Both the position numbers and the translations under genes were made by a program. Positions 19,523 to 64,000 of a DNA stretch of 64,000 bases are shown here, piece by piece. Numbering within the stretch: position 1 is the first letter of the stretch; the number at the start of each line of letters is the position of its first letter. The DNA comes from Alphaproteobacteria bacterium (lineage in GTDB: Bacteria; Pseudomonadota; Alphaproteobacteria; UBA8317). Below the pieces are notes generated by a model. That model searched no databases. It was not told the origin of the DNA and worked only from the letters and a program-made list of their open reading frames with translations. The DNA lies in assembly GCA_038131935.1 (NCBI GenBank), contig JAYPQH010000030.1, forward strand, positions 94,302 to 158,301, written 5' to 3'.

Positions 19523-20269
19523 TTGTTCAAGAAGCTTGTTCCCGTCACAAAAGATGCGCACAAGGCGTTCAAAATGAAACCGCTTGTTGATTTCAAGTTT
19601 GCAGGAAATGTACATTTAGCCTCTTTGATGGCACATGAGTTTGTTCGTGCAGCGTCAGTTTACCCAATAATCTTTGTTGAAGATGGTTCCGATGGGTTTC
19701 GTCCGGTTGCGTTAATGGGATTGGTACCTGAACAAAATCTCTTCATTGATGATGATGGAAATTGGAATGCCTCATACATACCAGCCATTATTCGTCGATA
19801 CCCATTCGCTCTGGCTAAGTTAGGGGATGGTGATCAGTACACTGTGTGCCTTGATGAAGAAAGCAGTTTATTTGCGAAGAAAGGTGATGGCAAACCGCTG
19901 TTTGATAAAGATGGTGAGCCTACAGTGGTTATAGATAACGTTAAGAAATATTTGACAGAGCTACAGCAAATGGATGTGTTCACAAAAGACTTTTGTAGTT
20001 TTCTGAAAGAACAAAACATGTTCACACTTTTGAACATGCGGGTAGTCGATGATGAGCAGCTAAAAACTATCACCGGTTGTTATGTTGTTAACGAAGAGCG
20101 TTTGAACAACCTATCCGATAAAGCTTTCCTTGATGTAAAACAAAAGAATTTTCTGCCCGCGATTTATGCGCATCTTCTATCTCTATCGCAGGTTGAGCGC
20201 TTGTCTGTGCTTAAACGTGAGAAATTAGCTCAAGCCAGTCTGGCTACAGACAAATCATCTATGCACTGA
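19523..20269 (+). CDS. SapC family protein
   Basis: AGGAG RBS with TTG start; EFVRAASVYPIIF, PVALMGL, YIPAIIRRYPF, YAHLLSL. Confidence 0.9.
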   Translation: MFKKLVPVTKDAHKAFKMKPLVDFKFAGNVHLASLMAHEFVRAASVYPIIFVEDGSDGFRPVALMGLVPEQNLFIDDDGNWNASYIPAIIRRYPFALAKLGDGDQYTVCLDEESSLFAKKGDGKPLFDKDGEPTVVIDNVKKYLTELQQMDVFTKDFCSFLKEQNMFTLLNMRVVDDEQLKTITGCYVVNEERLNNLSDKAFLDVKQKNFLPAIYAHLLSLSQVERLSVLKREKLAQASLATDKSSMH

Positions 20270-20285
20270 ACGTTGAATAAATCAT

Positions 20286-20984
20286 TTAAGAGTGCTGATC
20301 GTATGTTAAAGAGGAGGATTGGCTGCCATTAAGGTAATGGACACTCGAAATGGCGATTGCGTAGAACAGTTGGAGCCATTTACGATCGTTAAGCATAAGA
20401 GCAGATCTGTCGGGTAACCGATTGAGGCAATTTAAATCAACATAAAAGTACTTATTGCGGGCTGTTGTATCTCCAACCGGTTTCAGTAAGCCAACACGTG
20501 ATGCAACAAACCCTAGTTCCTGTGCTTCGCGTAACCCTTTTGCTAACAAACTAAATAAAGCCATAAGGTTTTGGGTTTCTGTGGTGTAATTCCCGTCTTC
20601 AGAAAAAATCGGGAAATATCCAGATTCACAAAAATAGGGAGAATTTTCATCTACAAAGATCTGTGCTTCTTCTTCATTTGAGCCTTTGATCAGAAATGGG
20701 TATATTCTCAGCAAGCTTGGAACTGCACTTAATTTTATAGACCCTTCTTGACAGACCAGTTTGTTCCTCTGATTTGACGCTCCGATAACCACGGTTGGGG
20801 TGAATATGTCCTGCGAGTTTTCATGTCTATGAGTGAATACAATAGGAAAGAAGCCGGATAACGTCCAGATCTCGGATAGCGTAACGTCGATTTCAGAAAT
20901 TTGAAGCGCGAACTTGAAATCTGTGACAGGTGTAAACCGCATATTGCGATGTTTTCTGCTGTTAAGCGGAACGAAGCTAGGCAT
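20286..20984 (-). CDS. Divergent SapC family protein, last gene of the secretion operon
   Basis: VPLNSRKHRNMR, FPIVF, VPSLLRIYPF, LNRLPD...LQLFYAIAIS; overlaps the secA-like stop. Confidence 0.75.
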   Translation of the reverse strand: MPSFVPLNSRKHRNMRFTPVTDFKFALQISEIDVTLSEIWTLSGFFPIVFTHRHENSQDIFTPTVVIGASNQRNKLVCQEGSIKLSAVPSLLRIYPFLIKGSNEEEAQIFVDENSPYFCESGYFPIFSEDGNYTTETQNLMALFSLLAKGLREAQELGFVASRVGLLKPVGDTTARNKYFYVDLNCLNRLPDRSALMLNDRKWLQLFYAIAISSVHYLNGSQSSSLTYDQHS

Positions 20985-22893
20985 CCCTCTTCCTTATTTC
21001 TGCCTTATTGAATGGTAGCGCTCGATGGAGCCAATCCTCATTGTCAAGCAGTTTAAGACGCTGTTTAAAAGAATTTTTCTCAAATCGATTTTGACACAAA
21101 CGGACAATACTTTTCATAATTATGCCTTCGAATTTGGGAAACATTTTCAAAACTGTAGAAAGGATCATCATTTCGAATACTCCCATTTGATTGCGGAAAA
21201 GTGCGTCATCTAGGCTCATTAATTTAAGCACACGGCCTGGGTCCCCTTGGCGCCCGCATCTACCGGTTAATTGACGGTCGATCCTAGATGATTCATTTGG
21301 TTCCGAGACAATCACATGCAGCCCTCCTTTAGACAGCGTTGCTTGATCTAATTTAATATCAACGCCTCGACCAGCCATATTGGTGGCAACGGTGACGCTT
21401 CCTGAAGTCCCTGCTTTTTCAATGAGCTGAGCTTCATTATCGTGATTAATAGCGTTTAAGACATTGTGCTGGATATTTAATTCGTCAAATATTTCCGAGA
21501 CCATCACACTATCTGAGACTGTTTTAACACCAACCAGAACTGCCTTGCCTTCTTGCTGGAGTTTTTTTGTTAAGTTTGCGACAGCAAGTACTTTTTGTTG
21601 TCTTGATTTACAGACAATTGGCTGTTCTTCGATTACTTTTCTCTTCCGGTGTCTTGGTATTTGAAGAACAGGAGTGTCGTAGACATGCCAGAACTCGGTG
21701 AAAGACTCTTTGGCAGTGCCAGTTGTGCAGGCAAGCTTTGGAAAGAGACGGAAAAAATTTTGAAAGGTCATTTGTATAAGAGGAAAGTTTGGATCAGTTA
21801 AGGGAACGCCCTCTTTTGTTTCTATGGCCTGATGCAAGCCACCCGAGAGAGTTCGTTCTGGAGTCAGGCGTCCAGTAAACTCGTCTATTAACACGATCTT
21901 TTCATGCTCTACAACATAGTGCACCCCCTTTTGGAAAAGCCATCGTACTTTCAAAGCTTGCGTTAAAAGGTCAATTACGCGCTCTGGACTCTGCCAGCCA
22001 GCAGGAGGCTTATTGCTTGATTTCGACATCATGGTTTCTGCATCGACAAGTAAAGTGACGGTTTTCCGCCTGTGGTCTAGTTTGAAATCTATTGATTGAC
22101 GGAAATTGCTGCTAGTTTTTGACGCCCAAGTTACTGCCTGATGAAGCCCTGGGATGGGTTTTGGGGCAGATATGATTAAAGGTGTCGTTGATTCATCAAT
22201 TAGCATACTGTCTGCCTCATCCACGATGGCGGAATGAATTCCTTTTTCTAGACAGATTAGGCCATCATTTTTTCCTGTTTGCCTTTTGTGCAATAGGTCT
22301 TTTAAAATATCAGCCAAAAGCGTTTTAGGCGTCACATACACCACAGAACTTTGGTAATTCTCCCGCCGAACTTCTGTGGTTTGTGTTTCCACGCACGCGC
22401 CGACGGTAAGCTGAGCATGCTCAAAAAGAGGGGCCATTTCCTCAGCGTCTCGCTGTGCTAAGTAATCGTTAGCAGTTAAAATATGACACGGCTTGCCGGA
22501 CCACCCCAGAAGGACACTGGCCATACCAACAGTGAGGGTTTTGCCTTCGCCAGTTGCCAACTCAGCCAAATAACCCCGGTGTATCGCAAGAGCCCCCATG
22601 ATTTGCTCTTTGTAGGGTTGTAAACCAAGACTTTTCTGGACCAGTATACATATTAGCGCTACACAATCGATCAGACGACCTTTCGCTGTTAATGGGTCGC
22701 GCCGAATTGCCATACGAAGGGATTCCAGTTCTTGGTTCAATTCATCACTACCACTCAATAGAAGTTGTCCCATAAGGGCTGAGACTTGATTAGCTTCAGT
22801 TTCAAGTTTCTTTAGTTGTCTTTTGCTAGATCTGGTCCTCCCGTATAGTTGGTACACGAATGAATCAAAACCTTTTTTACGTTCAGAATTCAT
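20977..22893 (-). CDS. Short SecA-like DEAD ATPase (accessory SecA paralog)
   Basis: ELATGEGKT, TANDYLAQRD, IVDEADS, LIDEFTGR, GLHQAIETKEG, ATNMAGRGVDI, RIDRQLTGRCGRQGDPG; only 638 aa. Confidence 0.93.
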   Translation of the reverse strand: MNSERKKGFDSFVYQLYGRTRSSKRQLKKLETEANQVSALMGQLLLSGSDELNQELESLRMAIRRDPLTAKGRLIDCVALICILVQKSLGLQPYKEQIMGALAIHRGYLAELATGEGKTLTVGMASVLLGWSGKPCHILTANDYLAQRDAEEMAPLFEHAQLTVGACVETQTTEVRRENYQSSVVYVTPKTLLADILKDLLHKRQTGKNDGLICLEKGIHSAIVDEADSMLIDESTTPLIISAPKPIPGLHQAVTWASKTSSNFRQSIDFKLDHRRKTVTLLVDAETMMSKSSNKPPAGWQSPERVIDLLTQALKVRWLFQKGVHYVVEHEKIVLIDEFTGRLTPERTLSGGLHQAIETKEGVPLTDPNFPLIQMTFQNFFRLFPKLACTTGTAKESFTEFWHVYDTPVLQIPRHRKRKVIEEQPIVCKSRQQKVLAVANLTKKLQQEGKAVLVGVKTVSDSVMVSEIFDELNIQHNVLNAINHDNEAQLIEKAGTSGSVTVATNMAGRGVDIKLDQATLSKGGLHVIVSEPNESSRIDRQLTGRCGRQGDPGRVLKLMSLDDALFRNQMGVFEMMILSTVLKMFPKFEGIIMKSIVRLCQNRFEKNSFKQRLKLLDNEDWLHRALPFNKAEIRKRDA

Positions 22894-22898
22894 TTTCT

Positions 22899-25070
22899 TT
22901 AGATTCTAAAATGCTTTTGAAGATATTGACTTAATGCTCGATGTATTTGTGAGGCCAATGGTTCTGGAGCAAGCTCAACCCTCAGTGTTGCTAAGCCACC
23001 ATGCATCAGTTTCACATTGGTATCGCCTTCATTGAGCATAATTTTCGATTTAATTTGAAAAAAGGGCTCTGTTGCCTTGAGACCCGTCGGATCTGATGGT
23101 TCTACTGCAATTGAGCCGCCGCCTGGAATGCCGAGGGCTGGGGATGGAAGTATGCCATTATCATGTGGAATTATTTCTAGATCAGTTGTGGTGAGTGTCT
23201 CTCTTTCTTGACCATGTAACTTCAATGTTGTTTCTGCAATAAATGATGCGAAAACATACGTCTGAACCTGTGGGATGACTCCTATAAACTCCCAGGTATG
23301 ATCGTGGGTTACAGTTCCAAGTTGCTGGCCCCGAGCGATGAATTCGCCTGGTGATAACCGCGTTTCATGGCTTGTCCAGATTCCACTCTCTGGTGCTTTA
23401 ACCTTGAGTCCTAGAATGTCGTTTTCTATTGTCGTAAGGTATTGATTAACTGAATCCAGTTGTTCATTAATTGGTTCCATTTCGTGTTGATTGTTTACAA
23501 GCGCGTTCTGGAGTCGCTGCTGGAGCTCTTTTTGTTTTGCTTGAGTCGCAGATTTTTGGAAAAAAAGTTCAGGGTTTTCGAGTTGAATAATAATTTGGTT
23601 CGCAACTAATGCAGTCCCGTTGTCTAGGAATTCATCAGAAATATAGCCACTAGTGGTGCTATATACTTTTTGCGTTGACGTAGGTTTTATAATCCCTGAA
23701 ACACGGAAGCTATTGTCTACTGGGATGGCAGTAAGTAGAGCTGTGGATGTGACTAAAATCAAGATACTTATACTAAACACTCTCTTCCGCTGGCCATCTA
23801 GACTGTCATCAAATAGAAAATATTTTATCAATTTTAAAAGCGGTACCACAGCAGTTAATATAATGACTGCAATTGCTATGAGTAAGCCCAGATCGAGATA
23901 CTGATTTGCGATAAAGGCGATTATACCGATCATCAGCGCAATCCAATAAAACATGCTGACAATCCCATAGACTGGAAGGATAATACTCTCGCGAAAGCTT
24001 TGTGCGACTGATTTTGCTCCTCGAACTCCCAAAATATAGCGTTTTGTAAGATATTTTAATTGATTGCGAGACTTCATAAACAAATTAGGTATGTTGAGAA
24101 TATCGACCAAAATATGATAACCGTCGAAACGAAGCAGCGGATTAGCATTGAACAGCACAGTTGATACGCTTGCGGTAAACATAATGTTGTAACAGAAAGA
24201 GTTCAGTAGACCTGGTGCGGTTGCTGACCATATTAATAGGGCTATTGTTGCCACGCCCAATTCAACACCTATGCCAGCTGCAGCAACCAAGAGTCGCTCC
24301 CTCCTGTGTCTGAACCCCCAGCTTGAGCTGGCGTCACAATATGGAATTGGAGTGAATAGGATGAACATCAGACCAATGATGTGAACCTCTCCTCCGAAAT
24401 ATTTGCAGAGCGCTCCATGGCCGATTTCGTGGATAGATTTAGTGACAGCGAATCCCATGTAGAGAAGGAACAGGTTATCGAAATCAAGAATCCCCTGTGA
24501 GGGATCGAAGATTATCTCTTTATTATTTAAAAATGTTATAATGCCTGAAACGATAAGTAGGAGATATAGAAATAATCCGATCGGTCCGAACATGAATTTG
24601 ATAAATGGAAGTGTTTTATTGAATAACCTATCAGGATCCCAGAGAGGGATTTTGATTGACATAAAACCTAGAAAAGTAGATAGCCGTTCTTGTGATTTTT
24701 TACTATTAAAGCGCTCTATGAAACTCTCGGTGTCCGATAATTGATCATAGATTAACATATTGGAAAGATGCAGTTGCGCTAGGATTTGAATTACTTCTTC
24801 CTGTGAGAGAGTAGTGTTTTGATCGCTTTCTACTGTTTTGTACCAAACTTCCTCTATTGTCTGATCAATGGACATTCTGGCTACAAAATTATATGCCTCT
24901 TCGGAGATTTTAAACCATTCACTGTTCATTCCATCGCGCATCACGTACCAAACCCGTGAGTCAAAAAGCTGCCTTTTTACTTGTACACTGGGACGTAACT
25001 CACAACGCAGTGAATATACTCGGTGCCAAGAGGAAGAAAAAGTTTGGGTTGATAAGTCGACCGTGTTCAT
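22899..25070 (-). CDS. Fusion of PqqD/RRE-like N-domain, M50 (site-2) intramembrane metallopeptidase and HlyD-like periplasmic domain
   Basis: HEIGH zinc motif, NANPLLRFDGYHIL (NxxPxxxxDG), multiple TM helices, C-terminal coiled coil plus lipoyl-like halves (KAPESG). Confidence 0.85.
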   Translation of the reverse strand: MNTVDLSTQTFSSSWHRVYSLRCELRPSVQVKRQLFDSRVWYVMRDGMNSEWFKISEEAYNFVARMSIDQTIEEVWYKTVESDQNTTLSQEEVIQILAQLHLSNMLIYDQLSDTESFIERFNSKKSQERLSTFLGFMSIKIPLWDPDRLFNKTLPFIKFMFGPIGLFLYLLLIVSGIITFLNNKEIIFDPSQGILDFDNLFLLYMGFAVTKSIHEIGHGALCKYFGGEVHIIGLMFILFTPIPYCDASSSWGFRHRRERLLVAAAGIGVELGVATIALLIWSATAPGLLNSFCYNIMFTASVSTVLFNANPLLRFDGYHILVDILNIPNLFMKSRNQLKYLTKRYILGVRGAKSVAQSFRESIILPVYGIVSMFYWIALMIGIIAFIANQYLDLGLLIAIAVIILTAVVPLLKLIKYFLFDDSLDGQRKRVFSISILILVTSTALLTAIPVDNSFRVSGIIKPTSTQKVYSTTSGYISDEFLDNGTALVANQIIIQLENPELFFQKSATQAKQKELQQRLQNALVNNQHEMEPINEQLDSVNQYLTTIENDILGLKVKAPESGIWTSHETRLSPGEFIARGQQLGTVTHDHTWEFIGVIPQVQTYVFASFIAETTLKLHGQERETLTTTDLEIIPHDNGILPSPALGIPGGGSIAVEPSDPTGLKATEPFFQIKSKIMLNEGDTNVKLMHGGLATLRVELAPEPLASQIHRALSQYLQKHFRI

Positions 25071-27745: not shown

Positions 27746-29380
27746 TCACTTTTGTCCAAAAATGTTGTTGACCTGCTCACTCAAATCCCCTTGCGCTGAG
27801 TAAAGCTGAATGAAAGCCTTTGCATATTGGGTCGACGCTTCAACTTCATTAATAGTTGCTTCTAAATTTTTCTCCTCAGACTGCAAAACCTCGATTATGT
27901 TTCCTCTGCCTTGCGCTAAACGTAACGAGGCTACTTCGAGTTGTTTTTTTGTTGAGTTAGCAATTTTTCTGGCGTTGAGCCACACTTTCTCTGTCTGAAG
28001 GGCTGTCTTGTGGCCGACTAAAACTTCATTTTCAAGGTTTTGTCGTTGGCCTTGAAGAAGCAACTCTGCTTTACGTTTTTCCAGACTGGCCTTTCTAATC
28101 TTGGCATTGGCACCTTTGTTGGCGCCCAATGGCATCCTGTACTCTATCGATATTCGGCGCTCTGGATGGCCAGCCATGTCGTTAATCCTCAATGCGCTGG
28201 TGGCAGTTCCTGCTTGTTGAGACCATCCGGCATCCAATCGAATATCGAGTGTGTCACGAGCCATATCTGACGCTTGGTCAAGTTGAAGCAGGGCACGTTT
28301 GATCGCAACTTTTTGTGCTTTGATGTCGTAACGAGTGTTGAGGGCTACGGTATATAGTTGTTGCCAATCTGGTATGTGATAGATCTCTGTCGGGAGTATC
28401 GATGGATCAAACTGGATTTTATCCACCGTAAGGTTTCCTTCGGGAGCAAGAAGGATGAGTTCGGTTTTGAACCGTATCAAGTCTCGTTCAGTATTTGATA
28501 TCAGATTCTCCAGCTTATTCAGGTTGATTTCGATATCAATTTCAGACGATCGCGGAAGACGTCCATTTCTGATTAAGGTACTGACCTCCGTTTTGAGTTT
28601 TGTTAAGATGGCTACGCGGGCTTTTAACCTTTCCAAGATTAGTTGGGTTTTTAAGGCATCTATATAAACGATTGCGGCCTGTGTGGTGATCAGGTTCCGT
28701 TGGTCGAGGGTTAAGTGTTCTTGAATTTTAGCTTCCAATTCAGCGATAGCAATATCCATGTTGGTGATTTTGGCTCCTGCACCGCGCATCAGTGGCTGAA
28801 CAATAGATAACCTTAAGTCACTTCGGTACTGATAGTTGTCCATGGTGCCGGCTTTCTGCCTGTTCAAGGATGAATCAATCGAAATCTTCGTGCCGTAGCT
28901 CAACAATTTTGAGACTGTGCCCTTCAAGTCAGTTTGTTTATCAGGATACGGGTCTGGTGATCTTCCTAATAACTGATCTTCAACCGAGAGCGGTGATAGG
29001 GTGTTCCCTGCTGATGATCTTACTGTCAGCTTCGGTTCATAGATCCCAAACTGTTCAATAATATTCTCGCGAGCGACTTCTTCATCAAGCTGCGCCATTA
29101 TGAGTGATCTATTTGAGTTCAGAACCGCATTCAGGAACATTTCAAAGGAGAATGCTTCGGACTTGCCCATAGGTTGACTAGCCAACGAAGGGTTGTGTAG
29201 CCCGAGGCAGAGTGCCAGGGAAAAGTATGTGAACAATTGTCTGTTACAGCCGCAAAATGAACGAGCATTCAAAATAAATGGTCTCAGCCGGCGCCAAAAA
29301 AATAGTTCAACATAGCTTGTTCCTACTTCAACGAAGTTATTGTCGATTCCAAAAAGCAATACTTCAAGGATTTTTCCCAA
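27746..29380 (-). CDS. TolC-family outer membrane channel (true start probably downstream of 29380)
   Basis: Outer-membrane efflux pattern AVLNSNRSL, LSIVQPLMRGAG, ALNTRYDIK, EYRMPLG, IQLYSAQG; signal-like segment ending LAS. Confidence 0.88.
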   Translation of the reverse strand: MGKILEVLLFGIDNNFVEVGTSYVELFFWRRLRPFILNARSFCGCNRQLFTYFSLALCLGLHNPSLASQPMGKSEAFSFEMFLNAVLNSNRSLIMAQLDEEVARENIIEQFGIYEPKLTVRSSAGNTLSPLSVEDQLLGRSPDPYPDKQTDLKGTVSKLLSYGTKISIDSSLNRQKAGTMDNYQYRSDLRLSIVQPLMRGAGAKITNMDIAIAELEAKIQEHLTLDQRNLITTQAAIVYIDALKTQLILERLKARVAILTKLKTEVSTLIRNGRLPRSSEIDIEINLNKLENLISNTERDLIRFKTELILLAPEGNLTVDKIQFDPSILPTEIYHIPDWQQLYTVALNTRYDIKAQKVAIKRALLQLDQASDMARDTLDIRLDAGWSQQAGTATSALRINDMAGHPERRISIEYRMPLGANKGANAKIRKASLEKRKAELLLQGQRQNLENEVLVGHKTALQTEKVWLNARKIANSTKKQLEVASLRLAQGRGNIIEVLQSEEKNLEATINEVEASTQYAKAFIQLYSAQGDLSEQVNNIFGQK

Positions 29381-29439
29381 GAACGCTTTTTTTGACGTGT
29401 GAGCGAGCTACCTTTATTTTTCTTATTTCTGATCGCCAT
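29323..29439 (-). CDS. 38-aa mini-ORF paralogous to the giant protein's N-terminal leader
   Basis: MAIRNKKNKGSSLTRQKKRSWEKSLKYCFLESTITSLK* versus giant MAAKGKKNRRSWLTRQKKRTWENS; preceded by a GAGG RBS. Confidence 0.5.
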   Translation of the reverse strand: MAIRNKKNKGSSLTRQKKRSWEKSLKYCFLESTITSLK

Positions 29440-30300: not shown

Positions 30301-30508
30301 AGTACATGGATCTCCTTTTATGGCGATAAACAATGGATGAATGGTTACCTGAAAACTTGATCGCAATCCCCACTCTGCCACTGCTATATTCACTGCACGC
30401 AACAAAAAAATAAGAAAGGATCAGCTCAACGAAAAGAATTCAAGGTACAGTGTGTAATTTGAAAAATAACACCCATAAAGCGTAAATTGGTATGGCTGTT
30501 TTAGCAAT

Positions 30509-30890
30509 GCTGTCTATTTTTTACTTGGCAAAGGTGGAATAGCATCTTGCCCAAAATCAAAACGAATTGATCAATATGATGCTGGAGCTAATCAGTCCTT
30601 GTTTGGTTGATAATTTGCCCTATTCAGCAATTAAAAGGTTTGCTGTGCTCCGAGATTATTTATTATATTTCAATTCATTAACGGTATTTTTTTTTGTTTG
30701 ATCCAATTAGCTTTATTCTTTGTTAAATGGGTAGAATTATTTATCGGAGAATTTATACTGCTATGTTGTGGAAAAGATGTGAAAATTGTGTAGCAGTAGT
30801 GCATTAGACGAGAATTGATGGCGGCAAAAGGTAAAAAAAATAGACGTAGCTGGCTTACGCGTCAGAAAAAGCGTACATGGGAGAATTCTC
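30509..30890 (+). repeat. Right arm of the inverted duplication: decayed regulator 3' end, promoter region and first 24 codons of the giant gene
   Basis: Reads YLAKVE*HLAQNQNELINMMLELISPCLVDNL versus regulator YAIKIDQDLAQNQSELMSLMVELMSTCVIDDL. Confidence 0.88.
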
Positions 30891-33800
30891 GAAGTCTGGT
30901 TGACCGCCTAGAAGACAGGATTTTATTGTCGGCCGATCCTCTGCTTCAGGCGGTGCGTATCGCCTCCGATAGCGAGCCAAGCATAATTTTTGTTGATGCG
31001 GAACAACAAGCCACCACCGTTGAGGTTACCAACAGCAATGTTGGATCGATTTCGCTGGATCTTACATCTCTTGGTGATATGGCGAACCAGAATCCATTGC
31101 TAACGCCGATCGATACAGACTTGGTCCGTCTAGACGCAACCATGCTCGCAATCGAGCTTGGTTTGGGCGATGCCAGTTTGACGGACTTGTCGCTCTCTCA
31201 GGAGAGTGATGGCACGCTTAGGCTTGGTGGTGATGGCGTTGTTGATCTGCTGTTCCAAGCACCAACTGAGAGCCTTGTGATACGTGGAGGGTTGGGTCTT
31301 GATTCGATAGAGCTAGAGTCTTTTTCGGTAGCTACTGCGGACATATTTATTGAAGCGGAACATATCAAGGTTGGTGAGGCAGCAGAGATATCGGTAGGCG
31401 GAGCTCTGACTTTGAATGCCATAGCGGGTTTTACTGAACGCCACACCGGATCCTTAGACGCACTTGCACTAGCCTTTGCCGATTCAACTTACAGTTCTTC
31501 AATCGAGGTTGACGGTAAAGTTTCGGTCTCTGGTGGGATGGTATTTGCCGCAGAAACTTCCCTTGCGCTAGATATTGATCATCAAGGCGATATAACGCCA
31601 GCCATACTGCGTCCAGAATTAGTCTCTGTTGCGTACATTGGAGCGAGTGCCGAACTTAATGCTGGTTGGTTGGAGCTGACCTCTGAAACTTCAGCTGATA
31701 TTGAGGTGGATGTTGACGGAGGTCTGGGCGTTATCTCGATAGACCTAAACCAAGTTAGTAGGTCGATGGTTTCAGGTGGTGCTAGCCTTCATCTCCATGA
31801 GAATGAAGGCGGGACAGTTCTTCTTGTCGATTCGTTTGGTCAGACCGGCTTAGATGCGCGATTTGCGCCAATTATCAATGATGGTGACCTGCAGGGATTG
31901 ATGGCCGGCCAGGATAAAACAACAGATACTGCTGGTTTTGATTTGGCTTATGCTGATTTTGCTATCAACAGAGATGTTTCTGCTGTCCTGGGTGATGGTC
32001 TAGACGTTTTGACAATTGGATCTCTAGATCAGCCAATAGCTGGTAGTATTTCAGTTGGTGCCGGCGCTCTAAATCTTGGTGACGCGGGTCTGAGTGTCTC
32101 CATCGATTCAGACATCACTGGATTGCAGTTGCTGACAGTCACCGATCAAGTCTTGGCGGAAATAAGGCGTGCAGAACTTGACGTGTTTGATATTGAGGTC
32201 CTTGCATATGCTGGCTCGTCAGCGGACTCAACGTCCAAGGTGGTTCAAAATCAGATGTATGGTTCTGTAGTTGCTAGAGTTATAGACTCTAGGCTTGGCG
32301 CCTCAAATGACATCTCAATCTTGGCTACAGATAACTCGACTTCCAGCGCGTTATCCTCCGATTTTGTGGCATCGGGTAGTCAATTGAAAGGCCTTGATAT
32401 TGGTATTGCTTACGCAACTAACCTTTGGTCAAGAGATATTTTGGCTCAGATCATCAATTCGGATGTGACCAGCTCCAATCTTTATTTGGAAGCGCAGGCA
32501 CTTGCCATATTAGACGCAGAAGTTGGGTCTCAAATTGTAGCCGAGGTAACGACGGGCGAGTCTGACCCAAGCTTTTCTATGGGGGGGGCGGTTGCCTCGA
32601 ATGAGGTGATGGGCCAGGTCCATGCGACGACGTCCGGTGGCTCTATTAGCGTTAACGGACTCTCTGTCCAAGCTTCCAATCTGATCTCTTTGCATTCCGA
32701 TACCGCCGCGGGTGCGGCATCTGCAGGTGATACCTCGTCTGCATTGGCGTTATCCTTTAATTTAATTGGATACACGATGACCGGAACCGTCGGTATGATT
32801 GCTGATTCAATACTGGGTGTGGATTCAGGGATCAAAGCAATGCCGCTTCATACCCTTGCTGAACTTCTTGATACTGAGGTGACCGTTAGCGGTGATATGA
32901 CGGTCGATGCTCGCAACGCGCTGTCGGTCAATTCATCCATCGACAGCTCGATCATGGCTGAAGTCGATGACCTGAGCGAAGCAATTGCAGTGGGTGCTGC
33001 TGTTGCATTGTCAACCAACCGATATACGAGCTCTTCAGTCACACGGATAATGGGTATATCAACCGGCCAGGCACGGCCATCATTGATCGTTGGTGGCGAT
33101 CTTTCGATTTCAGCGACAGACGAATCTGAGATCCTATCAAGTTCAGATGTTAGCGTGAATTCATTGGGTGGTGGGATTGCAGCAGGTGCGCTTATTTCCA
33201 ATAACCATGTTGATCGAGACGTATTGGTCGACCTATCTAACCGTGACATAGACGTTACTGGAACACTCTCAATGGCTGCACTATCGACCGGTATCCTGCA
33301 GTCGGCTGTAGAAGGTATTATCGAATTACCTGGTGCAATTTCATCGACCGAGCAAGGAGTCGATGATGGTTTAGGTATGAATGCTTTGGTGGCGTCTAAC
33401 ACAATGTTGGGTTCAACCATAGTCCAGTCCGATCAGTCAAATATGAATATCGGCGGTGATTTACTGTTGTCTTCAAAAACTTCAGGTTCAATTGATGCAA
33501 CTAACAGTGCTCTGACGTCGTCCTCGGGTCGTTCGGCCGGAGTAACAACAGCTTTTAATTCTATCGGATGGCAGTCGCAGAGCTTTGGCTCTCATTTGGT
33601 CGATGGACTCCTTGGTTCTAGGCTTGCTGATCAAGATCCGCTCAACACAACTGTTGATCTCGATGCGAGTGACATATCGATCAGCGGTGATCTTAATATC
33701 AAAGTTACACAAGTCCCCGAAATACGTTCGGTCGTTTCCAACGTTGCAGCGTCTGAGGCGAGTGGAGGAATGGGCTTTGTCTTGGCTACAAACAGAATTG

Positions 33801-36800
33801 CAAGGGACGTTGCAGCGGAAGTTCACCAAGGTGTTGATGTTGGCCAAGAAAATACTTCGCTTCAATTGGCTGGCGACATGACTGTCTATGTAAGTGATAC
33901 GTCTGGTGTTTCGGCGGTTCTTGATCTCGCGGCGTCTGGTAGCTTGTCATCTGTAGGTGCATTGGTCGCAAGAAATGATATCCGCGGAACGGTGGACGCA
34001 GTTTTAGGTGGCGTGCGCCTTGATGTTGGTGGCAGTCTTTCAGTTTTGTCTCGAATGGCTGCCACGATAACCGCCAGCGCCACAGGTGATGTAGTGGTAT
34101 CAGAAGATGCAGGGCTTGATAGTTTGGCTGCCAGTGCTCTGATATCGTCAAATACAATCCTGGGTGACTCTACCATTGATCTAAGTGAATCGATCATTGA
34201 GGTTGGTGATGAAACAGAAATACTTGCGTCCCAGATCTCAAAAATATCGGCCAGCAACTCCGCCAACGCGACGGGTTCCCGCGCCGCTTCGGGATTGATT
34301 GCCTTTAATGCGATTGGATGGGATGCTGGCAATTTGTTCGAGCAAGTCGCTACTGGTCTATTTAGCTCCAGCTGGCTTTCAGACAGCCCTGCTTCCGCTC
34401 CACTTGTGTTAGACGGTACTCATATTGTTTCTGGTGGTGGGATAGCCATGGAGGTGAGCTCATCATCAGATATAAGTGCCGACATTAAGGCTGGGGCTAC
34501 AGGCACATCCGGTGCAGCTGCCTCAGTTGTTCTGGCTACCAATTTGGTCAGTTCGAGGGCTCATGTCGCTGGTCGTCGAAGTGACTCAGCAACTCGGAAT
34601 ACAGAACTTATTTCGGGTGAATCCATACAGATTTTTGGTAACGATACATCTTCAATCATAGCCAATGTATCCAGTGATGCATCTTCAGATGGTGGATCGC
34701 TAGCGGTTGGTGGGGTGATCGCGCGAAATGAGATTGTGAGTTCTACTACCCTGGACTTCGACCATGCGAGGCTGGAGGCAGATGGTGATATCGCGATCAT
34801 TGTAAAGTCAGGAGCCGATATTGAATCAAGAGTTTCAGGTGTTGTCGAGGCATCGGTCGGGTCTGAGTCCAACGCTACGTCTCTGGCAATTAACGGTGTC
34901 ATCGCAACCAACGCGGTACAGAATAACGCCGACATAATCTTCAACCAGAGCCTTGCCGATGCGGGCAAATCAGTCACCATGAGCGCCTCTAGCCCATCCC
35001 GTGTGACCGCAAATAATACCGCGATTGTGACCTCGGATGGCCCTGCCGCTGGGGTAACTCTGGCCTTCAACACCATAGGAATGGCGCCGTCAAATATTTT
35101 CGCTACCAGCATCGACATACTATTAGGAGGCGTTCTTGCGAACGAGTCACCAGCTGGCAGCCAAGTCCTTGTAACCGGATCAAACATTAAGGCTGGAGGA
35201 GAGATTGAAGTTGCGGCAGGAGCGAGCCTAGAGGGTCATCAGCTCGGATCATTGGTGTCTTCGACAGTTGCTAACGAGGCAACGGCGGGTGAGGCCGCTG
35301 CAAGCTTTGTTCTAGCGACAAACCTGATCAATAGTAGAAATCGTTCGCTCATATCTGCTGGCAATCCTGACGACCTCGACCCAGCTAATCTGGAAAGTCT
35401 CGTCGATATATCGGCCGCTGGCGGTATATCAGTATCCGCTAGCGATGCCGCGATCATACGTTCTGATATCTCTTTGTCAGCAACCAGTAGTGGGGCTGCG
35501 GCTGTTGGAGGTGTGATCGCGACCAATGACGTAACGGCTGACACGATCGCGACACTTGATCGTATCAACTTGCGAGCCGGCGACACGACGATTGCGTCCC
35601 TCCAAATGGCTGCTATTGATGCGACCGTTAAGGGAGAAACCGTTTCAATCGATGACTCTGGTGCTGACGGGTTGGCGGTGAATGGTCTAATCGCATCAAA
35701 TGCTGTGAGGGGAGACACATCCGCACAGATTAGTGGTGGAGAGTTTCTTGTTGTCGGAGACCTCTTGGTAGACTCGAGGAACCGTGGATCGATTAGCTCC
35801 TCTAATGAAGCGACGATGGTATCTGGTTCGGGAGCGGTTGGTGCGACGCTGGCGTTTAATTCTGTCGGCTACGAGAAGCAAAACATTTTATCAAAGACCC
35901 TAGACGCAATTGTCGGTGGTGATCTCGGTGTGGAGTTGCCTTCTCAGTCAGATGCTCGAGTGACTGAAGTGAGTTTAGATGTGTTGGGTGATGTCTCAGT
36001 GGTCAGTCTGGCTGAGGGTACGATCTCGGCGATGACTACAAATGCGGCATCGAACCAGGGCTCTGGTACCACGGCAAGCATGGTGCTGGCTACAAATGCG
36101 GTCGTTGTAGAGACCGATGCGATCATTGAGGACTCAGGCCCAGTCAAGGATTCTGACGCGATTCGGGTCGGTGGCGATCTCCACGTAGCGGCCTCCAGTG
36201 CCTCGACCGTTCTGGCCGACGTGCTGGTCTCTGCGTCAGCCATAACCGATGCATCGTCGCTAGGGTCGGATTATGAAGCTGACTTCCTGTCTAGTGATGG
36301 AGAGCAAACACTGCAACTGGGCAATGTCGTCCATCTGACTCGACCATGAGGCCGGTGGGGACGCTGACTCACTGTACCTTATATGGGTCCAAGCCATGAG
36401 ACGATCGACCTTACCGTCACGGACTTCTCTGACGATGGCTTGTGGTACAAGGTGATTCCACCACAAGGCAAGGTTGCGGAATTAATTGCCAGCTTGGAGT
36501 CGGCCCAGATGCCGTACTTCGAGAAGTCCCTGTCCATCAGCGACCTGACGATCGCGGGTCAAACGTTTGATGTCGGCCTTGGGGCGGGGCTCGGCTGGCG
36601 CGACGTGGGGTTCCTTGATTTCTTGGCAGGTAATGCCGATCCGGTTACCTCAGAGATCTCGAAAACTGAGACGGGCCTGCACATTATCACCCCATCTTTG
36701 AACGTCGGCGGGCGCGAATTAGTTGGTCCCGAGTTGAACCTGGATATCGACCTTCCTAATCCGAAGTTACCCTATACGGTGTTTGAGGAGGAGCTGGGAT

Positions 36801-39800
36801 CCATTGAGCATGGCGGTCAGGTCTACTCGTGGGGTATCCGTGGCTTTGCGGGTTGGGAGGACACCACTCTACTCGAGATGATTAACGTCGACGCTCTGTT
36901 AGATGGAGACGTGAATCCGATCCCACCCGATATAGGCTTCGAGTTCTTCGTCGATGAATTTGTCATCGACGATCTCAGAATAATCCCGCCCGAGGTTCGG
37001 ATTACGCCCCCAGAAATTTGGTTAACGTTGTTCGGGAAACCGTTGAAACTGGCCTACGGCGACGAGATTGTGGTCACCGCCCCGAGTGAGCTGGACGACT
37101 ATATCGATGCTGATGCGGACCCGCTAGCGCTCACGATCCCTGAACTGAACCTCGACCAGCTGCTGTCTCCCACCAAGGTTGCCCAGTACCCGTCAGACTA
37201 CTGGAAAGACGCGCTGACCATCGATGTGCGTAACCCTGAGCTTCCGTACTTTGAGACGTTCCTTGCTGCCGGCTCCTTTGAAATTGACGGGCGAGACTGG
37301 GATATCGGTTTAGATGTATCAGTTGGTTGGGAGAACCAACGACTGTTCGACATGCTAGCTGGTGATTTACCCGTGAGTGGGATCGAGTTTGGACAGACGG
37401 GTTTTGTCCTACAGTCTCCAGGGATCGATGTTGCGGGATTTAGTCTGGCAGGGCCAGCGCTTGGAATTGATCTGGTGCTGCCCGACCTGGATTTGCCTTT
37501 TTACAGCTTCAGTGACGTAGTTGCGGAGTTTGAGATACCGGGGACCGGCGGAGAAACCGTCGGACTTGGCATTAACGCGGAGCTTGGTTGGAAAGACGCC
37601 ACTCTTATGGATCTGGTTGATGTTGGTGCCTGGATCGAGGGTAGCTTCGAGTCGGCCGAGCCCGTCTATGATTATTCCTTTTTCCTTGAGTACACCGACG
37701 ATAACGGTTCCACGGTGGGTGCGGTTCCCGATGTCATCTCTTTGGCCCTGCCCCAGGCTAGGGCCTCGGTGTTTGGCAAGAATGTCTTGTTTGGTGTCGG
37801 TAGCGGGCCTGTCGAAATCTCTCTGACGGACGTCTTGGGTGACGATTTTGGTGGCCTGATCGACGCGTCGATGGACCCGATTGAGATTGTCGCGCCATCG
37901 ATCGATTTGAATAGCCTGGTCGACCTTGATCCCAGGACATATCAGCCGGATGGGAGTGAGATTCTGATCAACGTCCTCGATACGTCGTCGTTCGAGAGCG
38001 CATTTTTCGAGTTGATAAAGGTAGTACCTGGAAACTACGGGTTCACTGACTCGCCCCTGGTTGCGGCGATTGACGTGCTGGCGGATGAGCTGATTCCGTT
38101 CTCGCTAACTAGCTTCTCGATAGACGACCTGATGCCGACTGAGGCATACGAAAAGATCAAGTGGTTTGTCGACGAGGGTGCTGAGACTGTTGATCTAACG
38201 ATCCCCAGTCAGGTCTATGATATTCCGGGCATCGGGCTCTTCTTAAGCAACCCAATACTCCCTAATATTGAACAAAGTCTGGACGCGACGACGATCGAGT
38301 TGGCCGGAGAAATGTGGGATATCGGCCTGTCCGCGTCCCTCGGTTGGCAGGGCGCGCGACTGATAGATGTGTTGGCTGGCGAGGCGCCGGCGTCTGGTCT
38401 CAGCGCCCTCGATACTGGTTTCGGAATCCAGTTCCAGCCAGAGGGAATAAACCTAGCCGGCTTCAACCTTCAGGCGCCCTCGTTGCAGGTTGACCTCAGA
38501 CTGCCCGACCCGGATCTCCCATTTATCGAGTTCGACCAGACCATCGCCGAGATCGATATTCCCGCGAGCAACGGGGCAAAGATCGGGGTAGGCGCGTCCG
38601 CGAGAATCGGGTGGGAGGATACCTCTTTGCTCAACTTGATCGACCTGGACGCGCTACTGAACGGTGAGTTCTCAGCAGTTGCGCCCGAGTTCGAGATAGA
38701 CCTGCGGCTCGAGTACACAGACAGCGAGGGTATGGGATCCAGCTTCCTCCCGGGTGAGATACATTTGGCCTTGCCCGACGTGAAGCTCGAGTTGATGGAT
38801 AAAACGCTGCTCCTTGGGTTCGGGTCGAGGCCGATCGAGTTCGAGACCAGCCGCCTAGGCATCAGCTCGGGCTTTATCGATGAGTCACTCGAGCCTTTGC
38901 TGATCGACCTCCCGACCCTCGACCTCAACCGACTGATTGACCCGACAGCAGATCTTTCTTTGTTGACCGACCTGAGCGACCAGACGTTTTACTACCAAGT
39001 CCAAGGGTCTGAGATTGAAGTAGACGTAACCGATCTGGATAGCTTAGAGGCTGGCTTCAGGCGACTGATCCAAGTTCTACCATCCGAGTTTTCGATCACG
39101 AACCCGACAGCGACCGGCGAGTTATTGGGTCTCGCGATTGATACGGAATTACCGCTACTTGAATTATCCGGCAGCCTGCAGGGCTCGGGGCTCATTGATT
39201 TCAACCTGTCGAGCTTCGGTCTGGAGGACGTACTGACGTCCGATATATTCGAGTGGGTCCAGCCGCTGATCGATCCGGAGGCGAGCCCTGTCACAGTTAA
39301 TATCCCCGACTTTGATTTTGGCACCCTAGGGTCACCGATCCCTGTGCTCGACCAATTTTTGGAGCAGATCGAGTTTTTACCATCCGAGCTGCGTGTCTAC
39401 GACCCGTCACTGATCGCCCAGGTCACCTTCGAGCTGTCAGAGCTGCTCTCAGAGCAGCCCGGCATGAGTCTAGTCACGAGCGTCTTACCTTTACCGACGA
39501 GCTTTGACAGCACGATTGATCAGGAGGTTTCGGTTTCAGGGTTAGTCAGTGACGCACTTAGTCGGCTCGGTATCGACTATCTCCGGTTTGGTTCGGATGA
39601 GACGGGTACCTACATGGCATTCAATGTCATCGACGTGTTACCGGAGTCGGTCGCGGATATCCTGGGTATATTTGTTGATCTCGATGACCCAGAGATACGA
39701 TCATTTGAGATCCCAAGCTTTAGTTTCGGGACCATCGACATTAACGCGCTTATCGGTGGCGACCGTTCGTCAGCGAGCACACAGGCCGCGTCTTCAAGCC

Positions 39801-42800
39801 AAACTCAAACAGTTACCACGACAACAACGGAACAGACCACCGAGGCACCTGTCAATGAAGACTGGGTTGCCCTCGACAGCGTAACCAACGCGCGGAGCGG
39901 TCAGTCTGAGATACAAAAGCTAACGCTCGACACGAAGGATGTTGACTTTTCTACCGGATCGATTGGAGCCAGCCTGGGCTTGGGCCGCATGATCACCGAC
40001 CCGATTGAGATTTTGGAGTTAGGTGAGTCGAGGGACGCGATCCAGGCCGTAAGTCTGCTCAGCGCCTACGACCTTGTCGGGCACTCAGTCCCGGCGAGCT
40101 CTTACGAGCTGACCCTGTCGCATGGAAGGCAGCCGGTCGGCAGCAACGAGAAGTTCCGTTTTTACTTTGAGGGTGATCCAGACGTTCAGTCGAAGACAGC
40201 TCGATTCTTGTCGACACAGACGTCCCGGCAGCCCGATGAAGTTGTGACCGCTCTCGCGGATTTGCTGGGAATCCAGGGTACAGCAGAGCGTGTCTCACGT
40301 GGCGTATATACCCTGGGCGGGATCACTGCCGCCTACACATCGAATGCTCCCGCAAACAATCAGCGGATCTCTATTACCTTCTCGGATACCTTGGCTGAAC
40401 GCCTGGACGGGGTTGGTGAGCTAAAGGTCACGATGATTACCCCGGGATCGAACCTGAGGCCGTCACTGGAAGCCCTGGATGGTAGCGACCTGCCGCCGGC
40501 GACGTTCGCATACAGTGTGAGCTTGGGAGGCCAAAAGACCAAGGCGGACTTTATCGCGCCATCGTCTCGAAGCCTAGCCGATATCGAAACCGCGACAGAA
40601 TCTAACCGAGCCAGTCTCGAGAAGGCGCTGGAGGACCTGGTCGGCTCAGGGAACGTGTCGGTAGGCACTGACTACGGCTCAGAAGACGCGTGGCTATTCG
40701 TGGTGACATTCCAGGGGCAGCTCGCCGGGCAGCAAGTCGGGTTGGTGTCGGTTGAGGCGTCCGGGGCAGCCGATGGTTCGTTGTTGGTCGACAGCGCACA
40801 CCTGGTTGAAGGCCGTCGGGCCACAGACGCCACGATGCAGGCTGCGCTTATCGAGGCAGGTCTAAACGACGCATTCGGAGGCACCGTGGCGCGTGTCGAT
40901 GTGTCGGACAACAGCGCTGTCGACGCGGTTGTGTACGAGATCCGCTATACCGATCAGCTCGGTGACCTTGACCTACCTCAGATCCGTAACACCAGCCCAG
41001 TCGATGGCCTGGTCGTAACCGTAGACACGGAAGTCAACGGCAGCGCCGCGAGCGGACCTCGATTCGTGCTGGACCAGGCATCTGTCGAGGATGCCTCTAG
41101 CTTTGACGTTAGGGTGTCAGTCAATGGTGCCCAGTACATCGCGAGCGCTCTTGATTCTGATATTTCTGCTGACGCGCTGGCGTCCGCGATCAAGGGCTCG
41201 GAGTACCTGTGGGTGACAGAGCTCGAGACGGGCGAAATGATCGAGGAGATATTTAGGTTTTCCGACCTAGGCCTCGATCCGTTAGTCACCCAGGCATCGA
41301 GTGCCGACGGGGGTCAGGGCTATATCATCACGTTCGCCGGCGACGTCTCGAACTACCCGCTGGACGGGATCGAGATCCGGCTCAGCGGTTCGGTACCAGA
41401 GCAGTCAGACCCGGCTAGTCAGTCACCAGATAGGGACGCATCGGCGGTCGGCGGCATCGTCGCCAGGAATGACATCAGAAGCACTTCCGTCTCAGGTATC
41501 CTGAATTCTTCTGTCTCCGCGTCGGGAATCTCGATCTCTTCTACCGACAACGGAATAGTAAGAGCCACCCTCGACGCTACCGCAGAGGCCGCCGGGTCCG
41601 AGGGTGATGGGATGGCAGTCGGTGGCATAATTTCGGCAAATATCGTGCAGGGTGGCGCGTCAGCGGTTATCGAAAACAGCCGGGTAACATCGCAGGGTGA
41701 TGTGTCGATCAACAGCATCAACAGCGCCCACATCGACGCCACCAATAACAGTGCCGTGACCGCTGGCGAGACGTCCGTCGGCGCGACTCTCGCGTTCAAT
41801 ACCGTCGGATACGAGGCCTCGAATATCTTGGCGCAGGCCGCTGATGCACTCGCAGGCGCTGGCTTCGCGGTGAAGAATCCGAACCACACGATTGCCCGGA
41901 TAGTCGGCTCCGAGATCACCGCGTCTGGTGGCCTCGTCGTTGACGCACGCTCTGAGGCATATATCCGGGCGAATGTAGATAATGAAGCAGTCTCTTCTGC
42001 CGCCGCCGCTGAGGGTAAGTCGAAGGGCGGGGTCTCGGCCGGTTTCGTGCTGTCCAGTAACTTCATTGCGGGCGATACAAGAGCATTAGTCGACAATGAT
42101 GGAAATACATTATCTGCCGGGCTTCCTGGTCTAACCGTTTCCGCGGTCGATGATGCGGCGATCGACTCACAAATCAACCTTACCTCGGCGGTCGAGGCCG
42201 GAGGGTTGGGACTGGGCGATGCCGCCAGATCGATCATGGATTATATCGGCATTACCTACACCGATCATTCGGGTATCCAACGCCTCAAGGTCGGCGACAG
42301 GGTCAGGTTAGGTTCAGCAGAGTACGGCGAGCTGGATAGTCCGACAGAGATCCAGACCGGCGAACGGGTCACGCTCCAAACAAACATCGGGAACGGTGCC
42401 GCGGGTCAGACTTATGAATATCTTGGTCAAGACCTGCTGACGAACGCCAGATTTGCCGAGCAGGACTTCTCTGATACCTCACTGTGGAGACGGCTGCTCG
42501 GTGACCCCGGAATGGTCTACGTTTATACCGGACCTGGTGAGGCACTGGACCTATCACAGACTGATTACACCGATACGTCACGCTGGACCGCCCTAGACCT
42601 TCAGGGATTTGTCGAACTGGGGCTGGACGTACTCGATTCGATCGGTGCCGAAGATGGCTCAACCGCGGTGGGCGGACTAATCACGAGGAACAGCCTCGAT
42701 GGGTTTACCTCGGCCAAAGTCTTAAATTCAGATATCGTTAGTCAGGGTGATGTGGTTGTCGAAGCCACGCGGTCGGGTCGCGTAGTCGCGGCTGATAACA

Positions 42801-63800: not shown

Positions 63801-64000
63801 GAGATCGCTGTCGGTACGGTACTTGCGATACAGGGCAGCTTCGGGATCCAGAGGGTCGGTAACCGCCAGGTGTTCCTCAAGGACGCGGAGCAGCACGTGA
63901 CGATGGCCGCGACCACGATCGTAGCGACTGGCGTCTCAGGCCGAGCTGGCTTAAACGTTGATGATACGGGAAGCTTCCAGGGACTCAGCCTGTCTGATGG
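30818..64000 (+). CDS. Giant LEPR-XLL-leader repeat protein (putative adhesin or surface protein), >11,000 aa, incomplete at window end
   Basis: LEDRILLSAD leader motif. ORFs 30815-36349, 36383-55369, 55297-56565 and 56228-58159, plus an unlisted frame from ~58121 that is in the same phase at the window end, join by small indels with repeat continuity. Composition is Gly/Ser/Ala/Asp/Val-rich, beta-solenoid-like. Confidence 0.88.

Follow-up and report, generated by a model that had tools for sequence, protein, structure and literature searches.

We analyzed a 64,000-nucleotide stretch of DNA (hereafter the window) from contig JAYPQH010000030.1 of an Alphaproteobacteria bacterium (assembly GCA_038131935.1), which contains a minus-strand operon whose fourth gene encodes a protein of 723 amino acids. 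The genes of this operon, which overlap or abut one another, encode in order a TolC-like protein, an HlyD-type adaptor, a GAF-like HlyD-type adaptor, the 723-residue protein, a SecA-like ATPase and a SapC-family protein; we refer to this set of genes, which recurs in other genomes, as the cassette. A giant open reading frame (ORF) with an N-terminal LEPR-XLL leader diverges from the operon. An earlier note on this DNA had described the 723-residue protein as a fusion of three parts: a PqqD-like recognition element (RRE) of the type that binds leaders of peptides that are synthesized on ribosomes and modified after translation (RiPPs), an M50 protease, and a membrane-fusion domain. It had proposed that the fusion reads and cuts the leader of the giant protein. 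All of the strings quoted there are present in the translation, with HEIGH at residues 214–218 and NANPLLRFDG at residues 308–317.

In the AlphaFold2 model of the whole protein (predicted local distance difference test, pLDDT, 82), approximately seven long helices lie within residues 163–448 and are followed by a domain of beta structure and coiled coil. A Foldseek search matched the C-terminal ∼270 residues to MexA, AcrA, MacA and EmrA with E-values from 4e-11 to 1e-8 (best matches MexA 1vf7, 3.7e-11, and MacA 3fpp, 2.8e-10, over ∼270–300 columns). This region therefore has the membrane fusion protein fold, and the previously suggested order of a multi-helix membrane core followed by an HlyD-like domain is borne out. 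Hidden Markov models (HMMs) for adaptors of this kind scored far under their cut-offs (TIGR01730, 17–19 bits against 94.9; TIGR03794, weak), and a phmmer search of the whole protein against PDB sequences returned chance-level rows only (E 0.7–1.2). Since the number of long helices in the model is odd (seven), the N-terminal domain would be positioned in the cytoplasm and the adaptor domain in the periplasm.

The same architecture is found in a large and uniform family. Over 1,818 homologues received a score; almost all are ∼715–730 residues long, and identities go down to 37% among the 120 matches listed. An exhaustive search using a profile of the N-terminal domain alone matched 1,959 clusters (50% identity level) with E ≤ 1e-3, of which 1,139 had E ≤ 1e-10, and the domain almost always occupied residues ∼5–110 of proteins of ∼715–730 residues; the shorter proteins among these matches are probably contig fragments. 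At the level of sequence, the size and uniformity of this family and the invariance of H214, E215, H218 and D316 within it indicate that the three-part pattern is not due to chance.

The N-terminal domain was modeled with AlphaFold2 and searched as a profile using an alignment of 62 sequences that covered residues 10–113. The resulting model (pLDDT 89; predicted template modeling score 0.81) has the topology β-β-β-β-α1-α2-α3, with strands at residues 29–36 (VQVKRQLF), 39–46 (VWYVMRD) and 52–56 (WFKIS), and helices at residues 57–65, 72–82 and 90–102 (QEEVIQILAQLHL). It matches the three-strand, three-helix pattern that had been read from the first ∼110 residues, with the addition of a short extra strand at residues 23–25. 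Profile–profile comparison by hhalign with an alignment of 30 PF05402-positive PqqD proteins from the same bacterial class gave a probability of 95.5% (E 1.5e-8, 85 columns, query positions 13–102 against positions 2–88 of 91 in the template), so that the PqqD-fold match anticipated for this region was obtained. The same query profile had a single match among all PDB sequences, to PqqD 3g2b (E 0.2, positions 13–98 against 12–94 of 95).

Structural comparison was consistent with these results and was topped by solved RREs. When the model was searched with VIA-align against 48,161 representatives, no fewer than 15 of the top 23 were, as judged from their titles, solved structures of RiPP proteins that bear an RRE, and it was on the RRE that they aligned. 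The highest Z-scores of this group belonged to the lasso B1 proteins 6jx3_B (8.9, with 84 of 85 residues aligned) and TbiB1 (5v1u_A, 8.9), TigE (8.6) and PqqD 5sxy (8.1), followed by ThcOx (7.8), the PbtF RRE (7.5), MccB (7.2), MibB (6.9) and LynD (6.6), and at lower values by CteB (6.0), TbtB (6.0), MadB (5.7), PqqD 3g2b (5.5), NisB (5.5) and SuiB (5.2). Of the named clusters in the ESM Atlas, the best three were PqqD (top score 0.94), and PqqD clusters made up 18 of the 30 matches. We regard the winged-helix, RRE-type fold of this domain as settled at the level of the model, and homology to PqqD as likely. The domain has the topology and the groove of the PF05402 PqqD/RRE family, and differs from that family in being missed by the Pfam HMM and in being joined to a protease and adaptor rather than to a RiPP tailoring enzyme.

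The central part of the protein contains the pair of motifs that is the hallmark of M50/site-2 proteases, HExxH and an NPxxxxDG-type sequence. Residues H214, E215, H218, N308, N310, P311, L312, R314 and D316 are invariant in 60 family sequences from several phyla, and D316 is likely the third metal ligand. Because H214, E215, H218, N310, P311 and D316 do not vary across phyla, the protease is probably active, as judged from these residues. The NCBIfam model NF041824 (daptide biosynthesis intramembrane metalloprotease) matched residues 25–409 over positions 3–364 of its 379, with an E-value of 1.1e-51 and 176.1 bits. NF058609 (YydH/LiaK epipeptide protease) matched at 6e-9 for the whole protein and at 1.1e-9 for the core, and many of the fusion homologues carry a precomputed match to the Pfam family Peptidase_M50 (PF02163). 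By these profile scores, the protease core has its nearest curated relative in the daptide RRE-intramembrane peptidase.

The divergent giant ORF starts MAAKGKKNRRSWLTRQKKRTWENSRSLVDRLEDRILLSADP, with lysine or arginine at 10 of the first 25 residues and no hydrophobic core of the Sec type, and the leader named in the earlier note, RSLVDRLEDRILLSAD, was located at its N-terminus. Residues 28–48 of a 200-residue N-terminal fragment, taken from the ATG, matched NF012209 (‘LEPR-XLL domain’, short name ‘LEPR-8K’, 24 positions; a model known here by its name and length alone) with 27.5 bits, above the cut-off of 17. A six-frame search of the genome (2.48 Mb, 89.9% complete) returned this site, adjoining the cassette, as the sole match (29.8 bits), and the leader motif occurs once in the window. 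In an alignment of 20 leaders, L31, E32 and R34 are invariant, and E29, L36, S38 and A39 are conserved at 90% or more. In the searchable literature the name LEPR-XLL occurs in two papers, with a single mention apiece.

We then co-folded residues 1–450 of the protein (an alignment of 60 rows) with a 55-residue leader (20 rows) in three runs, with two unrelated partners and one unrelated receptor serving as controls. The interface score (ipSAE, calculated from predicted aligned errors) was 0.65, 0.63 and 0.65, against 0.01 for the best control; 116 of 157 solved complexes attained that mark, as did 2 of 215 mismatched pairs. The runs had at least 78% of their contacts in common, with a partner pLDDT of at least 54. 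Co-folding, the comparison by which leader recognition had been suggested to be examined, thus passes its controls.

The predicted interface comprises leader residues 24–41 (RSLVDRLEDRILLSADP) and two surfaces of the protein. On the RRE side it includes residues 43, 50–56, 58–59 and 92–103 (β3 and α3), and on the protease side residues 207–218 (the HEIGH helix), 242–251, 303–316 (including NPLLRFD), 319, 328–332 and 353–357. The pairs of lowest error place V28 to L31 of the leader along β3 (55:28, 54:29, 53:30 and 52:31, protein residue first) and R34 to L36 on a protease strand at residues 244–248 (247:34, 319:34, 246:35 and 245:36), with LEDRILL lying over the protease site. The RRE is therefore predicted, in this model, to bind the leader as an added strand on β3 against α3. 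LEDRILLS, the recognition sequence proposed earlier, belongs to the stretch in the predicted interface. Position 54 of the protein, which is lysine here and arginine in at least 90% of the family, lies opposite the conserved E29. Conserved positions are enriched in the predicted interface as a whole (26 of 55, against 47 of 395), an enrichment that comes from the active site.

The cassette and the leader also occur together in other genomes. The cassette is present in Pseudomonadota, Verrucomicrobiota, Planctomycetota, Desulfobacterota, Nitrospirota and Spirochaetota, and its cultured carriers include strains of Marinobacter, Cellvibrio, Amphritea and Pseudomaricurvus. In a set of 80 related loci from many phyla, with neighbors considered within ±10 kb, we found the SecA-like gene beside the fusion gene at 70, a large HlyD gene at 72, a small HlyD gene at 43, a TolC gene at 22 and a SapC gene at 6. 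Large ORFs with the leader motif were seen beside the cassette at 20 of these loci (18 are convincing, one is a chance ORF of 60 residues and one is doubtful), and in many phyla LEPR-XLL genes are direct neighbors of the cassette. Among 201 genomes of the class, taken as one fixed sample (related genomes, which are not independent of one another), the fusion was counted in 16 at E ≤ 1e-30, and LEPR-XLL was found in 6, all within those 16 (6 of 16 against 0 of 185; Fisher p 9e-8). Twenty-five further cassette genomes, chosen because they showed no leader within ±10 kb, contained LEPR-XLL above cut-off in 23 cases, often in open frames of 4,610–12,587 residues. In four genomes (G202, G204, G205 and G206) the LEPR-XLL gene adjoins the cassette once the length of the giant is allowed for.

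Taken with the co-fold, the curated LEPR-XLL leader and the daptide-related core, this co-occurrence supports the idea of RiPP-style leader recognition. We believe the 723-residue protein to be, somewhat more probably than otherwise, the substrate-recognizing inner-membrane component of a two-membrane exporter for giant LEPR-XLL proteins, with the RRE reading and the M50 domain cutting the leader. The cytoplasmic RRE would capture the leader of the giant, with residues ∼27–31 adding as a strand along β3 and packing on α3. Capture would feed the invariant L-E-x-R-x-L-L into the HExxH/NPxxxxD site, where the M50-type protease would remove or clip the leader. The C-terminal membrane-fusion domain could then join the two additional HlyD-type adaptors and a TolC-like channel across the periplasm, and the adjacent SecA-like ATPase may act as the motor in place of an ABC (ATP-binding cassette) transporter.

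Several results weigh against this reading, many of them concerning the N-terminal domain. A Pfam scan of the domain at E ≤ 10 gave chance rows and no PqqD, PF05402 had no match in the organism's own genome at E ≤ 1e-5, and NCBIfam searches with the domain alone gave nothing relevant, with NF041824 unmatched at E ≤ 1. That model scored 168.9 of its 176.1 bits on residues 122–409 alone (E 1.8e-49), so that the protease and not the N-terminal domain supplies the score. Foldseek returned no PDB match to the domain at E ≤ 0.001 (the best, TruD, was at 1.3e-2, in a weak list full of RRE proteins), VIA Z-scores of 8–9 are in a range that the tool rates as common, and winged helices that are not RREs score equally well (Rv2067c 9.2, NovN 8.6, PKMT2 8.3). 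The RRE side of the predicted interface is conserved (at 90% or more) at only 3 of 16 positions, against 9 of 88 elsewhere, the pLDDT of the partner is low (54–58), and, because solved RRE–leader complexes exist, the co-fold may have passed partly through memory or likeness. Such a pattern could be produced by a generic winged helix, involved in dimerization, nucleic-acid binding or regulation, that binds no peptide and is like an RRE at the level of the fold only. We consider that explanation quite improbable, given that the hhalign match extends over the whole domain, that PqqD is the sole PDB profile match and heads the ESM Atlas clusters, that the architecture is that of the daptide RRE-peptidase, and that the co-fold places the leader in the canonical β3/α3 groove. 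The protease core is itself below two thresholds, at 176.1 bits against an equivalog cut-off of 300 for NF041824 and at 17.5 bits against a gathering threshold of 27.2 for PF02163. The RRE might bind the leader while the core acts as a docking site, gate, channel subunit, or cutter for quality control or stalled substrates, in which case the leader would stay on or would anchor the protein. The M50-like protein of this locus type has been proposed to form the inner-membrane pore (Kamneva et al. 2015, PMC4452313), the co-fold output does not allow a scissile bond to be named, and conservation of the leader runs on to S38-A39-D40 with no obvious cleavage motif. This alternative nevertheless appears unlikely, since a non-catalytic scaffold would not be expected to keep H214, E215, H218 and D316 invariant in 60 sequences from several phyla, and since the homologous daptide enzyme is described, in the portion of the source available, as a leader peptidase (bioRxiv 10.1101/2023.03.08.531785).

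Other difficulties concern the substrate and the route. No LEPR-XLL match was found in 10 of the 16 fusion-bearing genomes of the class sample or in 2 of the 25 cassette genomes. The absence in those 10 genomes would be accounted for if the RRE-protease acted on a different substrate (perhaps a short peptide, a regulatory protein or something resembling an anti-sigma factor) and the giant were exported independently; the relatives DapP and YydH/LiaK process short peptides, and a 38-residue ORF that precedes the TolC gene resembles the N-terminus of the giant. That ORF lacks the invariant LExR, however, and a separate substrate would leave the restriction of LEPR-XLL to fusion-bearing genomes in the class sample, its presence in nearly all of the further cassette genomes, its position beside the cassette in many phyla and the control-passing co-fold to be explained in some other way; we therefore assign this possibility a low probability. 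The SecA-like gene is absent from 10 of the 80 loci. At four of these the contig ends at the fusion gene, and at four others of the ten (L057, L069, L074 and L075) a different adaptor is found downstream of the fusion. Finally, no inner-membrane channel was identified.

In type I secretion systems of the C39 class (peptidase-containing ABC transporters, or PCATs), the inner-membrane component recognizes and cuts the double-glycine leader of bacteriocins and microcins, which exit via an adaptor and TolC. The logic of reading and cutting a leader during export is the same as that proposed here; those systems use a cysteine protease and an ABC ATPase/channel, whereas the cassette combines an RRE with an intramembrane zinc protease and a SecA-like ATPase. 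The window ORFs scanned yielded no ABC transporter domain, which places the locus outside classical type I secretion. More tentatively, and with slightly less than even confidence, we suggest that the cassette represents a distinct, ABC-independent two-membrane pathway in which an RRE reads a RiPP-style LEPR-XLL leader, a fused zinc protease cuts it and a SecA paralogue drives export. Under that reading, and held just as tentatively, a new secretion system would have taken over a recognition module of peptide natural-product pathways to serve as its targeting receptor.

Parts of this picture are already known: daptide clusters have RRE-M50 peptidases, the SecA_DEAD/HlyD locus has been described, and LEPR-XLL exists as the name of a model. 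As described in the available portion of a preprint, the daptide enzyme is a site-2 protease with an RRE joined to its N-terminus, and removes the leader (Ren et al., bioRxiv 10.1101/2023.03.08.531785), so the combination of RRE and M50 domains is not itself new. DapP/MpaP (NF041824) and the protein described here, as far as the former is covered there, are alike in having an N-terminal RRE and an HExxH intramembrane site-2-type protease with homologous cores, and in leader-guided processing at the membrane (which is predicted here). They differ in that DapP, of ∼380 positions, has no membrane-fusion domain and acts on short RiPP precursors with an ELExMEAP leader, whereas the present protein, which is not an equivalog by its score, has a giant as its presumed substrate. 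We considered and rejected a daptide or other RiPP cluster, since no tailoring enzymes are encoded nearby (no aminotransferase, methyltransferase or decarboxylase genes of the daptide type were found among the window ORFs scanned, and the neighbors are secretion genes), the NF041824 score does not reach the equivalog cut-off, and the host, which has a TolC protein, is Gram-negative.

For the locus type itself, Kamneva, Poudel and Ward (PLoS One 2015, PMC4452313), in the text accessible to us, proposed a type-I-like system with a secondary SecA_DEAD ATPase and an M50-like protein as possible pore. The locus was reported there from Proteobacteria, Verrucomicrobia, Planctomycetes, Nitrospirae and Chlorobi, with no ABC transporter in these loci, and its role was called ‘completely unknown’. 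Methylobacterium extorquens AM1 is named there as a carrier. Their loci contain a secondary SecA_DEAD protein, a weak Peptidase_M50 match with HlyD, GAF-HlyD, HlyD/biotin-lipoyl and sometimes OEP/TolC, and are of the same type as ours; the same text names no substrate, leader or PqqD/RRE, and the words ‘PqqD’ and ‘giant’ are absent from it. In the literature searched, SecA_DEAD appeared with HlyD only in that paper and PqqD and HlyD appeared together in none of the papers listed, while the accessible part of a 2021 Chem Rev review held nothing relevant under M50 or SecA. An RRE on the M50-HlyD protein of this locus, LEPR-XLL giants as its partners and RRE–leader docking were not found in print, in a search that left out subscription journals and supplements.

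If the proposed export role is correct, a locus reported in 2015 with neither role nor substrate would gain a substrate class (giant LEPR-XLL proteins, some exceeding 10,000 residues), a targeting signal, a receptor domain and an order of events that can be tested. Until now, RREs have been taken as markers of peptide natural-product pathways, and a reader of giant-protein leaders would, if true, widen the role of the fold. It would also call for caution in genome mining with RREs, as ∼1,100 to 2,000 clusters formed at 50% identity would wrongly be pursued as RiPP leads. The same reading may explain the exit of some of the largest bacterial proteins that lack Sec signal peptides, and a short leader combined with the cassette could serve as a tool to export very large passengers.

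Table 1. Positions of the genes, domains and motifs discussed (window coordinates).
Feature	Position	Strand	Basis
RRE - M50-like HExxH intramembrane protease - membrane-fusion (HlyD-type) fusion gene, 723 aa	22899..25070	-	ATG start, ORF and translation, homologues, AlphaFold2 model
N-terminal PqqD/RRE-like winged-helix domain, residues ~12-110	24741..25037	-	AlphaFold2, hhalign, VIA, PDB profile, ESM Atlas
Multi-helix M50/site-2-protease-like core, residues ~140-450	23721..24653	-	NF041824, NF058609, helices, hydrophobic segments
HEIGH putative zinc-binding/catalytic motif (H214, E215, H218)	24417..24431	-	Direct reading; in predicted leader interface
NANPLLRFDG motif (N308-G317)	24120..24149	-	Direct reading; 307-308, 310 and 313-316 in predicted interface
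Membrane-fusion-protein domain, putatively periplasmic, residues 451-723	22902..23720	-	Foldseek on whole model
Giant protein leader, residues 1-41: basic N-region, then SLVDRLEDRILLSAD	30818..30940	+	Translation, NF012209
Giant LEPR-XLL gene, presumed substrate, runs off contig	30818..63998	+	Five frame pieces here
Four giant-gene breaks	36338-36379, 55279-55366, 56192-56562, 58005-58156	+	Frame pieces
TolC-family outer-membrane factor	27746..29380	-	Pfam OEP E 4.6e-16, TIGR01844
Small HlyD-type adaptor, 289 aa	26911..27780	-	TIGR01730 96 bits, over cut-off
HlyD-type adaptor with weak GAF-like N-part, 546 aa	25067..26707	-	Pfam HlyD_D23, HlyD_3; GAF_2 E 0.007, under cut-off
SecA-like ATPase, 638 aa, directly downstream of fusion	20977..22893	-	Pfam/NCBIfam: SecA_DEAD, preprotein cross-linking, NBD2
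SapC-family protein, last operon gene	20286..20984	-	Pfam SapC
Second SapC gene	19523..20269	+	Pfam SapC

Among the neighboring genes (Table 1), the SecA-like ATPase lacks the C-terminal third of SecA, and a housekeeping SecA is encoded elsewhere in the genome (contig C18). An 89-residue ORF (26664–26933, minus strand) overlaps the start of the 546-residue GAF-like HlyD gene, whose homologues are ∼620 residues long; the N-terminus of that gene has probably been cut by a frame break. The two SapC genes (Pfam SapC E-values 4.8e-34 and 5.9e-67) lie tail-to-tail at the end of the operon. In Chlorobium chlorochromatii, according to the part of a preprint available to us, a SapC gene and a ‘unique TolC’ lie between two giant proteins (bioRxiv 10.64898/2026.03.19.712371), and SapC may regularly accompany giant-protein export as an accessory.

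A paralogous second cassette was found in the same genome (C8:6343-15273), comprising SapC, a TolC-like protein, two HlyD proteins, an RRE-M50-HlyD fusion and a SecA-like protein, with the last two being 33% and 37% identical, respectively, to their counterparts in the window. Ahead of it are fragments of a further large, repetitive protein, the start of which lies beyond the end of the 17.8-kb contig. A variant cassette was seen at the four loci with a different downstream adaptor, which come from Marinobacter, Cellvibrio, Amphritea and a gammaproteobacterial metagenome-assembled genome and have no SecA-like gene within 10 kb. There the order is the fusion, then an HlyD-like ORF of 357–505 residues (282 residues in L069), then a LEPR-XLL protein with the leader IEALEPRxLFSAD.

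The giant gene had been described as encoding an 11,000-residue protein. More than 11,000 codons are indeed present in a row of pieces, although they do not form one open frame in this assembly: the stop-to-stop pieces are 1849, 6333, 428, 655 and at least 1998 residues long, with the last running off the contig end, and the frame that begins at the leader ends after 1,843 residues at two in-frame TGAs (36347 and 36365). No Pfam family matched any of the five pieces at E ≤ 1e-3. We compared the breaks with contigs from four runs, three of DNA and one of RNA, that stem from no more than three samples and studies and cover all 30 bins of 36300–56299. The contigs of all four runs have 2-nt and 1-nt insertions at ∼36338–36379 and a 1-nt insertion at 55281–55284; applied by script, these insertions extended the open frame to 8,184 and then to 8,583 residues, so that two of the four breaks are closed. 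Splitting also affects other genes of the window, with methylmalonyl-CoA mutase appearing as four overlapping ORFs and acyl-CoA dehydrogenase as two (7918–9855, plus strand, and 4443–6135, minus strand), and the breaks in the giant gene therefore look like indel errors of the assembly rather than marks of a pseudogene. The RNA-library contigs over all of these bins offer a weak hint that the giant gene is transcribed.

A duplication of ∼100 nucleotides, with its copies ∼78% identical, is found at 30780–30900 (plus strand) and 29323–29439 (minus strand). It corresponds to the ribosome-binding region and first ∼27 codons of the giant gene, with the second copy lying just upstream of the TolC-like ORF. 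That upstream copy forms the 38-residue ORF mentioned above (MAIRNKKNKGSSLTRQKKRSWEKS...), which contains an in-frame A_AAA_AAG heptamer at which a −1 shift would join the TolC frame. We rejected the notion of a TolC-like protein carrying a LEPR-XLL leader by way of such a shift, because the joined frame lacks the invariant LExR, which leaves the duplication unexplained; it could be a remnant, arise from an indel error or serve a translational control common to both sites. A 157-residue ORF (29932–30405, minus strand) that matches no Pfam or NCBIfam family is located between the operon and the giant gene, and might encode a local regulator.

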